Assembly (NCBI RefSeq): GCF_003790525.1
Contig: NZ_CP033635.1
Strand: one strand, 5' to 3'
Length of the DNA stretch: 64,000 nucleotides
Source of the DNA: Escherichia coli
Lineage (GTDB): Bacteria; Pseudomonadota; Gammaproteobacteria; Enterobacterales; Enterobacteriaceae
Shown here: one piece after another, positions 3,032-6,229 of the stretch
How positions within the stretch are numbered: position 1 is the stretch's first letter
Layout: each line of letters begins with the position of its first letter
Notes under the pieces: model-generated
Told to the model about the DNA's origin: nothing
Seen by the model: the letters and a program-made list of their open reading frames with translations, nothing else
Databases searched by the model: none
Position numbers and translations under genes: made by a program

Positions 3032-3805
3032 TCATAATTGCCATTTTAAATGCAGGCCTAATTGCAGCCCATTGAAATTATGGTTCGGTGTTTTATACCA
3101 AACTTTACCTGCCGTCAGCCCGAGATTAAGTTGCTCAGTCAGCGGTTGAATACGTTGTAAACTGACGCTCTTCATGCTGCCGTATCGTGTTTCTGGCGTC
3201 CAGTCATAGGTGTAAGCACCTGTTCCGCGGCTTAGCCATAGTTGTGTATAACCAGCACCGCGCGGGTCCTTCAGACGCACGGAAATCATATTGCTGTAAC
3301 TACCAGCTGCATCGCTGGAGTCATAATGGGTATAGCGGTAGCTGGTGATCACCGGGCCAGTATAGAGAGATACGCCGCCTTGCCAGGCATCGACTTCGAC
3401 ATCATCGTAATATTTAGTGTAGCGATAACCGGTCGTGAAAAGCGTTTTTGGCAACAGGGCCAGGTTAATATCCTGACGAAAATCCTGACGGGCAAAGACC
3501 GGCGTATTATCCGCAAAGGCAATACCCGTTCGGGTTGTCAGCCAGTTATTCCATTTGTACCAGACTGCACCCTGGCCGCGAGTGGCATTGAAATGTTCAG
3601 TTTCATAATCACGACGCCCCTGGGAAAGATTAAAAAGCAGCGTTGCGTTTTCAACTTTTGCCACCAGTTCAGCATAAGCTAAATTACGGTTGCCATGGTC
3701 GCCAGAATAATCGGTAAAATCGTAGCCCGTGGTAATGGAAGTTAACCCGGCATAAGCGGGCAATGCACTAAAAAAAAACGGCATTAATAACGTATGCTTT
3801 ATCAT
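3032..3805 (-). CDS. yaiO: Outer-membrane beta-barrel protein YaiO
   Basis: 257 aa, signal peptide, C-terminal ...LHLKWQL; length and gene neighbourhood (acetyltransferase, glycosyltransferase, PIG-L deacetylase) match the K-12 yaiO-yaiX-yaiP-yaiS locus as recalled. Confidence 0.75.
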   Translation of the reverse strand: MIKHTLLMPFFFSALPAYAGLTSITTGYDFTDYSGDHGNRNLAYAELVAKVENATLLFNLSQGRRDYETEHFNATRGQGAVWYKWNNWLTTRTGIAFADNTPVFARQDFRQDINLALLPKTLFTTGYRYTKYYDDVEVDAWQGGVSLYTGPVITSYRYTHYDSSDAAGSYSNMISVRLKDPRGAGYTQLWLSRGTGAYTYDWTPETRYGSMKSVSLQRIQPLTEQLNLGLTAGKVWYKTPNHNFNGLQLGLHLKWQL

Positions 3806-3806
3806 T

Positions 3807-4517
3807 TTAATCTCCTGTACGGATAAGTTCTTGTCGGAGTGAGTAAGTTCCGGTAGGTAAATTACGTTCTACAATCACGCGCGGGCCAAGTTGCGTGTTC
3901 GGGGAAATAATTCGCCCGGGCAAAATAATAACCTGTACGCCAAGGCGTGAACGCTGCCCGATATAACAACCTAATTTATCGCATCCGGTAGCGATAATTC
4001 CATCTGGCGTTCGAACAGACACGGGCTGTTCATCCAGACGATGATTACTGGTACGTACTTGTGCGCCCAGATATGCCTGGTTTGCAACTACCGAGTCGGC
4101 AACAAAGCATTGCGGACCAATCGTTGCTTCCGTTTCAATAACCGCATTTTTAATTTCGGTGGCAAAACCAATTTTTACGCCATTGCTGATTATTGTGCCA
4201 GGACGAATAAACGCATAATTACCTATCAGGCAGTTTGCGCCAATCACTACCGGCCCCTGAATAACGGCACCGTGGCAAATACGGGTATTCGCGCCGATAA
4301 CAACTTCACCTGCACTTTCATCAATAATTACCTGGTCTGCAATCTGAGTATTTTTCTCTTTAACATTAAGCTCCAGATAGTTTTTCAGTTTCTGTGACAG
4401 AAGGTTGGGAATAAGCGGTTGACGTTTCCACCAGTGCGGAATAGCGGGTGGGTTTGTCGCGCTGAGGTTCGCGTCCAGTAAAAAAGGCAATAAGTCCATA
4501 AATAATCCAGATGGCAT
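3807..4517 (-). CDS. yaiX: Hexapeptide-repeat acetyltransferase (YaiX-like), apparently intact
   Basis: Left-handed beta-helix repeat pattern (IGANTRICHGAVIQGPVVIGANCLIGNYAFI...). The annotated ORF overlaps yaiP by about 150 bp, so the true start is probably internal. Confidence 0.6.
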   Translation of the reverse strand: MPSGLFMDLLPFLLDANLSATNPPAIPHWWKRQPLIPNLLSQKLKNYLELNVKEKNTQIADQVIIDESAGEVVIGANTRICHGAVIQGPVVIGANCLIGNYAFIRPGTIISNGVKIGFATEIKNAVIETEATIGPQCFVADSVVANQAYLGAQVRTSNHRLDEQPVSVRTPDGIIATGCDKLGCYIGQRSRLGVQVIILPGRIISPNTQLGPRVIVERNLPTGTYSLRQELIRTGD

Positions 4518-5562
4518 AAGCTAATAATACATACACAACGGAAAGCGGAGCTAAAGGTACTAACAACCAGCAACGATGAAACCAGGCGCTAAAAGTACCA
4601 ATAACACAAACTATGCCGACCCAGATAAGCGGGAACATTGCCATCACCACACCATGTGGCCCGGTGGTGATGAATTCATTAAACCAGGTAGTGAGATAAA
4701 TCCCAACGCCATAAAGCACAACCAGCAGCATAGGAAATATACTGAAGATACCGAAGCGGCTAAATAAAAGTCTTTTATGCAGGCGCATACAGACCGCGTA
4801 GCCCACAATCCAGCGCCGCCAGCGACGCCACTCCTCACGAAGGCTGTTGCATTCCTGTGGGTATACGATACAGCGATTCACCTGCCGAATACGGTAACCA
4901 TTGGCGACCAATGTCCAGGTGAGATCGAGATCTTCAACTTTGGTACGGTCCGAAAAACCGAATTTACGCAGCACATCGGTACGGAACATCCCGCAGGCAC
5001 CGCTGATAATAAACGGTGCACCACCCAGGAACTGCTGTAGCGTACGCTTCATAGCAATCATCGGCAACTTTACGGTGGCGCGGATATGTGGCAGCAGACC
5101 TGCCCCTTTTAACGCGGTGGAGGGAATTCCGCCAACGGCATCAGCGCCGCGCTCAATTTCTGCCAGCATATAGCCCATTCCATCACTGTCAGGTGGAACG
5201 AAAGTATCTGCATCACTTAAAAATACTTGATCACACGTGGCGTATTTTATTCCATGCATTAGTGCGCCACCTTTACCGGTGTTTTTTTGCGTGACGGCAA
5301 CAAAGCGGTCGCCCCATTTGCGTTTGACTTCCGCCATGACCGCTTCGGTATTGTCCGTGGAGCCGTCGTTAACGCAAATTACCCGGCAAAAATAAGGGTT
5401 ACGCAGCAGATTATCCAGTGACTGCGCCAGACACGGGCCTTCGTTATAAGCAGGTATAATGACGTCAATACAGCCTTTCTTTTGACTGGGTTTACGTCTT
5501 AGCGTACTTAAAAACCATAGCAACATTACTATGGACATACAGATAAATATCCAAGTCTTCAT
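4366..5562 (-). CDS. yaiP: Family-2 glycosyltransferase, membrane-anchored (YaiP)
   Basis: 398 aa; N-terminal GT-A domain (IIPAYNEG...DGSTDNT...DAD) plus C-terminal transmembrane segments; length matches K-12 YaiP as recalled. Confidence 0.8.
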   Translation of the reverse strand: MKTWIFICMSIVMLLWFLSTLRRKPSQKKGCIDVIIPAYNEGPCLAQSLDNLLRNPYFCRVICVNDGSTDNTEAVMAEVKRKWGDRFVAVTQKNTGKGGALMHGIKYATCDQVFLSDADTFVPPDSDGMGYMLAEIERGADAVGGIPSTALKGAGLLPHIRATVKLPMIAMKRTLQQFLGGAPFIISGACGMFRTDVLRKFGFSDRTKVEDLDLTWTLVANGYRIRQVNRCIVYPQECNSLREEWRRWRRWIVGYAVCMRLHKRLLFSRFGIFSIFPMLLVVLYGVGIYLTTWFNEFITTGPHGVVMAMFPLIWVGIVCVIGTFSAWFHRCWLLVPLAPLSVVYVLLAYAIWIIYGLIAFFTGREPQRDKPTRYSALVETSTAYSQPSVTETEKLSGA

Positions 5563-5575
5563 TTATGAAATCCAG

Positions 5576-6229
5576 TCATAACACCATTTTGTATATAATA
5601 AAACCTTCGCACATAGCGCAGTTTGCCTGTTGCCCTCTGAAACTGGCCTGACTATGTAAATATTCATGTTGCATATATTTACGTTGACTCTGGCTTTTAT
5701 GCTCTTTCAATGCCATTAATTTTTTATTAAATTCATTCTGCTCTATTGCTTCAAAAGCATGAGGGGAAAATGAAATCCATGCACTTGGTGTTTCATATCC
5801 CAGTATCTGAGGAATATAACGACAGGCAACCATTGATGCCTGATAAACAGCAATATGATCCTGATGCCTGTCAGAATTATTCATGGTATAAACTCTCGTA
5901 ATTTCGACATCCTGAGGGATATCATTAGCAATTATATTTTCCAGGGAAGATATCATGTCTCTTATCTGTAAATAAAGACGGGTATCCTCAAAATTAAGAT
6001 GAATTGACTTGTCACATCCCAGTATTTTTAATGCTTTCTGTGACTCTTTATGACGGTCAGTATCTTTTCCCCCACAACAACCGGGGGTCATAACTACCGC
6101 GATAGTATATATATTTCTGGCAGAAAAAGTTGCAAGAGATGCACCACATCCTAATTCTATGTCATCAGGATGTGCACCTATTGCCAGTACACCTGTTCTC
6201 TTTCCTGAATATGTGATAGAATTTAACAA
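5576..6229 (-). CDS. yaiS: PIG-L/LmbE-family N-acetylglucosaminyl deacetylase (YaiS)
   Basis: AHPDDIELGCG motif near the N-terminus and HxDH-type motif (SDRHQDH); start may be internal (K-12 YaiS is shorter as recalled). Confidence 0.7.
   Translation of the reverse strand: MLNSITYSGKRTGVLAIGAHPDDIELGCGASLATFSARNIYTIAVVMTPGCCGGKDTDRHKESQKALKILGCDKSIHLNFEDTRLYLQIRDMISSLENIIANDIPQDVEITRVYTMNNSDRHQDHIAVYQASMVACRYIPQILGYETPSAWISFSPHAFEAIEQNEFNKKLMALKEHKSQSQRKYMQHEYLHSQASFRGQQANCAMCEGFIIYKMVL

Follow-up and report, generated by a model that had tools for sequence, protein, structure and literature searches.

A second, divergent copy of the yaiS-yaiP-yaiX-yaiO cassette in an insertion-sequence-rich island of Escherichia coli, and the nine-T run in its yaiO gene

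This article describes a four-gene cassette of the yaiO, yaiX, yaiP, and yaiS type from Escherichia coli, which occupies positions 3032–6229 on the minus strand of a 64,000-nucleotide stretch of contig NZ_CP033635.1 (assembly GCF_003790525.1); this whole stretch is herein called the window. In the direction of transcription, the operon begins with the yaiS-like gene of a PIG-L/LmbE-family deacetylase (5576..6229, 217 amino acids, TTG start), followed by the yaiP-like gene of a membrane glycosyltransferase of family GT2 (4366..5562, 398 amino acids) and the yaiX-like gene of a left-handed β-helix (LbH) acetyltransferase (3807..4400, 197 amino acids from the RefSeq start, with the open reading frame [ORF] remaining open to 4517). 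The final gene is yaiO (3032..3805, 257 amino acids), which codes for a signal peptide and a predicted 14-stranded outer-membrane β-barrel. yaiS and yaiP are separated by 13 nt, yaiX overlaps the 3′ end of yaiP (spacing −35 nt), and a single nucleotide lies between the yaiX stop codon and the yaiO ATG, which is preceded by AGGAG 7 nt upstream; Shine-Dalgarno sequence and tight gene coupling are both kept. The GC content of the module is 45.4%, and that of yaiS 37%. An earlier note on this DNA had assigned the four genes correctly: the ORFs lie where it placed them, RefSeq and NCBIfam agree on their families, and the RefSeq names in the identical GF60 record are YaiO family barrel, acetyltransferase, GT2, and PIG-L deacetylase. 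An Rfam scan of positions 2800–7200 with E-values up to 1 returned only a chance match to Hovlinc and, hence, no known riboswitch or leader. A consensus scan for promoters and terminators gave counts equal to the shuffled expectation, and the operon promoter is therefore left unnamed. In a PADLOC search for defense systems, none of the four cassette proteins was matched.

In K-12, the insertion sequence (IS) IS2 is annotated between two yaiX fragments, and the earlier note had taken the unbroken yaiX of the window to mean that this strain may retain the functional four-gene locus. Its observation holds, since yaiX is neither interrupted nor frameshifted: the alignment to K-12 is collinear with both yaiX halves and broken only at IS2, and at the equivalent position (4217..4222) the window is continuous, with the blastn pieces against K-12 abutting and overlapping there. 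The conclusion drawn from it does not hold. By megablast against 5,426 complete E. coli genomes, the module is found in 4,927, with at least 80% of it in one place in 4,785; the uninterrupted module is, thus, the norm, and a two-piece, IS2-split yaiX was seen only in K-12-type records among the matches listed, so that an intact yaiX is no special trait. The best identity reaches at least 99% in only 15 records and lies at 90–95% in 4,655. A further 27 records with a best identity of 95–99% are intermediate between the island type and the more common ones and may be recombinants or partial copies.

Each of the 15 island-type records has at least two matching places, and the position of the resident copy was located in GF60. 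The window module is 100% identical to GF60 (NZ_CP172185.1, 937278–940475) and to TUM9803, and GF60 carries, in addition, an intact resident locus at 4524567–4527777 in the order tauA, PIG-L, yaiP, acetyltransferase, yaiO, frmR, i.e. in the K-12 position. Compared with the resident alleles, the window module shows 90–92% (about 91%) DNA identity, and the island and GF60 resident proteins are ~64% (YaiS), 95% (YaiP), 96% (YaiX), and 93% (YaiO) identical. The window copy, hence, corresponds to K-12 yaiOXPS neither by its position between frmR and tauA nor by the near-identity that is expected within a species; instead of a retained K-12 locus, it is a second, divergent copy in an IS-rich island. 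With the K-12 locus (yaiO-yaiX′-yaiP-yaiS), it shares the same four families, their order, orientation, and tight coupling, with YaiP about 95% and YaiO about 93% identical. It differs in its location in an IS-rich island, in a yaiX without IS2, in a highly divergent and longer YaiS (217 versus 185 amino acids), in the signal peptide of YaiO (PFFFS with T9 versus AAAIFS with T5), and in the C terminus of YaiO (WQL versus WKF). The 15 carriers are mostly isolates from poultry or poultry meat from several countries, with one canine and two human isolates among them.

The cassette is flanked by IS1414 and a gene for a YadA-like adhesin on one side and by an fhuD fragment and TRAP permeases on the other. 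The transposase gene of IS1414 (IS256 family; 1655..2860, minus strand) lies directly downstream of yaiO. This element flanks the cassette in GF60 and TUM9803 and is missing from five other island copies inspected; in Br_112_kylling, a divergent, frameshifted IS256-family copy is found at the IS1414 site. The wider mosaic contains IS66, IS3, and IS21 elements, pseudogenes, sodC, an ABC transporter, and an S6 autotransporter protease.

Besides the resident and the island position, two further chromosomal contexts of the cassette are found. In SE15, Nissle 1917, IAI39, and FDAARGOS_144, an IS66 remnant is followed by yaiO to yaiS, ~1 kb of sequence, and the genes of phosphoadenosine phosphosulfate (PAPS) reductase and IbrB; SE15 carries this ibrAB-linked copy only, with none between frmR and tauA. 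In IAI39, ibrA beside the cassette carries a frameshift, and an IS3 element interrupts ibrB. In the fourth context, the cassette lies beside IS66 and an omptin gene. The ibrAB-linked allele is the closest to the window for yaiO (95.8% DNA identity); it shares the T9 run, the N terminus MIKHTLL(V/M)PFFFS, and the long form of yaiS and likewise adjoins IS remnants. It differs in its flanks (at one end an IS66 remnant plus PfkB kinase, at the other PAPS reductase plus IbrB), in YaiS, which is about 70% identical at the protein level, and in its abundance of about 850 records compared with 15. Alleles that are 75–91% identical to the window are also carried by 36 Escherichia plasmids, of which 24 are conjugative. 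Their cassettes adjoin virulence- or colonization-type genes, mostly with a tyrosine recombinase or IS elements nearby; neighbors include a PerC-family regulator, TonB-dependent receptors, fimbrial genes, histidine decarboxylase, and toxin–antitoxin pairs.

Among 100,044 species representatives, close relatives of YaiO are found only in E. whittamii (90%) and in Citrobacter sp. FP75 and C. braakii (75–76%). The locus of E. whittamii and both Citrobacter loci have the identical four-gene order, and the cassette of E. whittamii is flanked by ORFs sized like tauA/tauB and frmA. YaiP homologs of 62–69% identity belong to clusters named Stenotrophomonas, Pseudoxanthomonas, Lysobacter, Pseudomonas, and Acinetobacter. 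The order PIG-L, GT2, LbH, YaiO is kept on two contigs with such homologs, a metagenome contig (cluster named Stenotrophomonas sp.) and one of Acinetobacter baumannii, in which the cassette adjoins MobA/MobL. An apparent loss of yaiO in metagenome locus L028 was rejected, as its DNA is identical to that of L029 and only the gene calling differs. When nine alleles are compared, divergence is greatest in yaiS and smallest in yaiP. The dN/dS ratios of the window genes against other alleles are 0.07–0.23 overall and 0.07–0.14 for YaiP, meaning that the genes are under long-term purifying constraint. Judged from these sequence comparisons, the order PIG-L deacetylase, membrane GT2, LbH acetyltransferase, YaiO barrel is that of a conserved, mobile, and multi-allelic cassette.

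YaiO matches TIGR04390 in NCBIfam over residues 22–255 with 177.5 bits (cutoff 32), and its homologs carry PF19413. The signal peptide is MIKHTLLMPFFFSALPAYA|G. A sequence search of the PDB returned no solved relative of YaiO, and a fold search was used for this reason. The AlphaFold2 (AF2) model, with a predicted local distance difference test score (pLDDT) of 90, is a closed 14-stranded barrel behind the signal peptide. Its best structural neighbors are the oligosaccharide channels CymA and OmpG, not the 16-stranded exopolysaccharide porins. YaiO has been reported to be expressed and located in the outer membrane, and its gene is used as an E. coli marker in PCR (PMC4453288); a yaiO transposon mutant of CFT073 was recovered in a screen on type 1 fimbriae (PMC6727828). 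The 3′ end of the window yaiO (3032..3100, minus strand) forms a divergent patch in the allele comparison: the last ~65 nt are heavily divergent from every other allele and AT-richer, and the megablast alignments to other alleles end 30 nt short of the 3′ end. Such a patch may mark a breakpoint of recombination with an unsampled allele. Outer-membrane proteins usually carry a terminal aromatic residue as their assembly signal. The window YaiO ends in ...HLKWQL and, thus, does not carry this aromatic β-signal (W-K-F), whereas WKF is found in eight other E. coli alleles, in E. whittamii, and in the two Citrobacter proteins.

YaiP contains the Pfam domains PF00535, PF13641, and PF13632, one predicted N-terminal helix, and several predicted C-terminal helices (residues 2–21 and 241–362 in the AF2 model). 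In 30 homologs, D66, D117-A-D119, E210-D211, and W245/R247-W248/R250-W251 are invariant; the D, DxD, ED, and (Q/R)xxRW motifs are therein all present, with the first residue of the RW motif not being Q. In the model, a GT-A domain appears to be fused to a transmembrane channel bundle. The top matches of the model in Foldseek are hyaluronan synthases (E about 1e-14, TMq 0.54–0.67), followed by BcsA. The best NCBIfam match is PgaC/IcaA (TIGR03937) with 106 bits, and NodC is matched with 37.6 bits (E 1e-9). Hence, we infer from motifs and model that YaiP resembles processive membrane GT2 polymer synthases. YaiS contains an AHPDD motif and no evident signal peptide. It scores 66 bits against BshB1 in NCBIfam, below the cutoff of 182, and its nearest solved relatives, determined by phmmer against the PDB, are diacetylchitobiose deacetylase (1.7e-10) and BshB. 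YaiX matches the C-terminal acetyltransferase domain of archaeal and alternative GlmU proteins in NCBIfam and, in the PDB, residues 242–398 of Sulfolobus ST0452 (E 3e-23).

Two known types of systems can be compared with the cassette. With pgaABCD, which it would resemble in its broad mode of working without belonging to that family, it has in common a membrane GT2 synthase, a deacetylase, an outer-membrane β-barrel, and an aggregation phenotype. However, YaiS is a PIG-L protein without an evident signal peptide, whereas PgaB is a periplasmic deacetylase of the CE4 family; YaiO has a predicted 14 strands and no tetratricopeptide repeats (TPR), whereas PgaA has 16 strands and TPR; and the yai cassette has an extra LbH acetyltransferase and no PgaD, an operon partner of PgaC. 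The 106 bits of YaiP against a cutoff of 422.3 for PgaC/IcaA mean that it is not a PgaC equivalog. The class I hyaluronan synthases of Chlorella virus and Xenopus are the best structural match of the YaiP model; they are single-chain GT2 enzymes with their own channel and polymerize a chain containing N-acetylglucosamine. Compared with them, YaiP is about 100 residues shorter, and the identity is 13–17% in this comparison of a model with solved structures.

On this basis, a mechanism can be proposed for the cassette. Herein, YaiP would be a membrane-embedded processive synthase of the hyaluronan-synthase/PgaC/cellulose-synthase type that polymerizes a glycan containing N-acetylhexosamine (HexNAc) and passes it across the inner membrane. 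In the cytoplasm, N-acyl groups on a sugar precursor or primer would be taken off and put back by YaiS and YaiX, and YaiO would supply a 14-stranded outer-membrane channel for the product. This would yield a glycan, either at the surface or secreted, that causes cells to stick to each other. The HexNAc glycan as the product and the direction of transport are what we infer from the gene content. The phenotype would agree with EcoGene 3.0, in which the repair of yaiX′ in K-12 is described to lead to YaiP-dependent vegetative clumping (PMC3531124). The earlier note had proposed a surface-polysaccharide modification module; its link to a surface glycan is kept, and a self-contained cassette of synthase plus channel fits the gene content better than a modification module.

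The run of nine T in yaiO (3770..3778, minus strand; A9 on the plus strand) is present as described earlier and codes for FFF in codons 10–12, within the hydrophobic core of the signal peptide. The coding region starts with ATG ATA AAG CAT ACG TTA TTA ATG CCG TTT TTT TTT AGT, in which the run codes for F10 F11 F12 between P9 and S13. A slip by one base disables yaiO, in keeping with the frame shift expected in the earlier note: natural T8 alleles are annotated as frameshifted, with a stop at codon 21. The longest T run within the first 60 nt of yaiO varies with the allele. It is T9 (PFFFS) in the window and in the ibrAB-linked allele, T7 in the alleles of the TK3046 chromosome and pKS-NP019 (both PAFFS) and of pWP4 (LAFFS), T5 in the K-12 and GF60 resident alleles (AAAIFS and AAVIFS), and T5 or shorter with various residues in the other plasmid alleles. 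E. whittamii and Citrobacter yaiO have no long T run at this site. Among the alleles compared, T9 is, thus, confined to the island and ibrAB-linked types, between which it stays in frame at a dS of 0.16.

The length of the run was followed through the complete genomes. Fourteen of the 15 island copies are 100% identical over yaiO and, hence, all T9; in the remaining one, Br_112_kylling, the run is T8, and the gene bears a frameshift annotation. With exact 80-mer searches and ibrAB-type flanks, T8 is found in five records (FDAARGOS_144, IAI39, EcN_Sk, 21335, and FCI23) and T9 in ~833, and no record of the complete genomes contains T10. The totals amount to ~847 T9, six T8, and zero T10, i.e. 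99.3% of ~853 carriers have T9. The T8 alleles of IAI39 and FDAARGOS_144 look genuine, with all neighboring genes intact in FDAARGOS_144. The EcN_Sk record is suspect because its neighboring genes are frameshifted and the Nissle reference has T9. An assembly error in Br_112_kylling was considered on account of its frameshifted IS256-family gene, but this gene is a divergent copy and not a homopolymer error; the T run is the sole indel across 4.5 kb, and real slippage and sequencing error are indistinguishable there. The ibrAB-linked context offers a control: 5 kb away from yaiO, ibrB contains an A8 run, which is shortened in one of the 1,124 records carrying it. The ratio of the T8 rate to this control is about 8 (Fisher p = 0.047), as is expected from an indel rate that rises exponentially with run length (PMC8510543).

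Nine-base A/T runs are not enriched in the window: it contains three, dinucleotide-preserving shuffles give an expectation of 1.7 ± 1.9, and three are reached in 27 of 100 such shuffles. All three lie in annotated coding sequences, and 130 kb of GF60 core DNA contain no run of at least nine. The other two are found at 13035–13043, in the gene of an ABC extracellular solute-binding protein, and at 42688–42696, in a ParD antitoxin gene. K-12 has a G10 homopolymer between the yaiO stop codon and frmR, which exceeds any run in the window cassette. Close to its 5′ end, the GF60 resident yaiP has eight consecutive A (A8; codons P-S-Q-K-K-G), a stretch that is interrupted in the window copy (CAAAAGAAAGG).

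Taken together, it is probable that the window carries a second, horizontally acquired allele of a mobile four-gene cassette within an IS-rich island, that this is a surface-glycan cassette of the synthase type, and that the T9 run is incidental to it. The run consists of three TTT codons for Phe, probably inherited with the allele lineage, and it looks like a weak, −1-biased frameshift hotspot, long enough for transcriptional slippage, rather than a tuned phase-variation switch. The observations of the earlier note are, thus, borne out, and its interpretation is supported in part only. Several points weigh against this reading. The model of YaiP has moderate confidence (pLDDT 78.5), and the PgaC equivalog cutoff is not reached. 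The nearest folds of YaiO (CymA, OmpG, and FadL) are uptake channels, and its role in export is, therefore, taken from the operon context alone. The island YaiO may assemble poorly, since the terminal Phe of all other compared alleles is missing. The clumping result is a meeting abstract and concerns the K-12 allele (PMC3531124). Lastly, T8 recurs in unrelated strains, including the clean assemblies of IAI39 and FDAARGOS_144, which shows that the run is measurably mutable.

Two other explanations concern the run itself. If T9 were a true contingency locus, replication slippage would switch the outer-membrane channel heritably and render the glycan display phase-variable. Its placement would suit such a role, since any ±1 change at codons 10–12 truncates YaiO at about codon 21, just as an early run in an outer-membrane protein gene leads to a premature stop at contingency loci and 9A/9T slippage sites. 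The six T8 alleles are independent and come from different lineages, at least two of them from clean assemblies, and their frequency exceeds the nearby A8 control by the factor given above. In real contingency tracts, however, the length varies widely between close relatives, upward as well as downward, whereas the yaiO run is almost fixed in length, with −1 being rare and +1 absent, is kept in frame between diverged alleles, and is of a length found at chance frequency in the window. Moreover, EcN_Sk and Br_112_kylling need care, as neighboring genes are frameshifted in both, and the loss of the last gene alone, i.e. of the channel, would presumably leave the synthase running. Phase variation at T9 is not supported by the population data, and a contingency locus is considered very unlikely. 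Rather doubtful, too, is an effect at the RNA level, in which the polymerase would slip on the nine-base run, leaving part of the yaiO transcripts out of frame and the yield of YaiO below that of the upstream genes; T8 alleles would conversely leak some full-length YaiO. Runs of nine A or T are long enough for transcriptional slippage to matter, as discussed by Baranov et al. 2005 (PMC1088944), and it is at this length that selection against slippage-prone coding runs shows in many bacterial genomes; 9A/9T runs also serve programmed slippage (PMC1088944). The yaiO run lies in the transcribed region, early in the gene, and is exactly nine bases long. Yet slippage would herein be a cost and not a function, and T5–T7 alleles with the same gene order are far commoner, so that no need for the run is apparent.

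The status and the product of the island copy can be read differently as well. It could be a decaying passenger of the mosaic island that is no longer functional as a unit. It is surrounded by IS elements, the fhuD fragment, and frameshifted transposases; the adjacent TRAP permeases have no binding protein and are truncated in most strains; YaiO ends in WQL, unlike every other allele compared; one of the 15 copies is frameshifted; and the sequence upstream of yaiS is not common to other alleles, as the alignments end at the yaiS start. Against this, the four ORFs are intact in 14 of the 15 genomes, which come from several countries and hosts, the dN/dS ratios indicate long-term constraint, and the Shine-Dalgarno sequence and gene coupling are kept; decay is, thus, judged unlikely. 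Alternatively, the cassette could follow the logic of Nod factors, with a NodC-like GT2, a non-reducing-end deacetylase, and an N-acyltransferase, and make a short N-re-acylated chito-oligosaccharide rather than a long exopolysaccharide, with YaiO as its oligosaccharide channel. The relation of YaiS to diacetylchitobiose deacetylases, that of YaiX to amino-sugar N-acetyltransferase domains, the NodC match of YaiP, and the likeness of YaiO to CymA and OmpG would all be in line with this. However, YaiP scores higher against PgaC/IcaA than against NodC (106 versus 37.6 bits), in fold, it is closest to polymer synthases equipped with a translocation channel, clumping is the phenotype that has been reported, and the flanks examined revealed no acyl-carrier or fatty-acyl genes. 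Such an oligosaccharide is, hence, regarded as distinctly improbable compared with a polymer made by a synthase-type cassette.

The surroundings of the cassette deserve a brief description of their own. The window begins inside the gene of the YadA-like trimeric autotransporter adhesin, and a small sigma-factor-like helix-turn-helix gene lies at 912–1367. On the opposite side of the cassette (6645–8972), the fhuD/TroA-like pseudogene fragment is followed by the genes of the TRAP small and large permeases, without a gene for a substrate-binding protein. Most of the other island carriers inspected have a truncated small-permease gene, which in two cases directly adjoins an IS2. The S6-family (SPATE-type) autotransporter protease of 1,274 amino acids is encoded at 21662–25486, with sodC and the ABC transporter located between adhesin and protease. 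With these genes, the make-up of the island is virulence-like. A tRNA-SeC called by ARAGORN at 56538–56632 is probably spurious, since it lies inside the annotated istA coding sequence of IS21 and RefSeq has no tRNA there.

The island copy is, thus, an additional member of a known but uncharacterized E. coli cassette family, and its T9 run is ordinary. The run is of minor interest, as an example of how a slippery stretch can mimic a switch while population data disagree. The cassette itself is more interesting, being mobile, multi-allelic, sometimes present in two copies per genome, and undefined in its product. Because yaiO is widely used as an E. coli-specific target in PCR (PMC4453288), divergent extra copies, whether on islands or on conjugative plasmids, and the Citrobacter relatives are relevant to how this marker performs. 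yaiSPXO has no established function, and the sole reported phenotype, clumping, is masked in K-12 by IS2. As a conserved, mobile, and multi-allelic cassette under purifying selection, with a synthase-like GT2 and a putative dedicated channel, it is a testable candidate for an unrecognized surface-glycan system. A more far-reaching and tentative reading, which is itself unlikely, is that of an undescribed, self-contained, and mobile gammaproteobacterial glycan secretion system that combines a hyaluronan-synthase-like enzyme, Nod-factor-like N-acyl editing, and a 14-stranded channel, with alleles varied in their deacetylase being stacked in one genome. If true, its channel would differ from the porins of the Pga, Bcs, and Pel systems, which have 16 strands, and alleles differing mainly in the deacetylase would make chemically different products. 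Some E. coli would then stack resident and island or plasmid alleles and, in this way, widen their surface repertoire.

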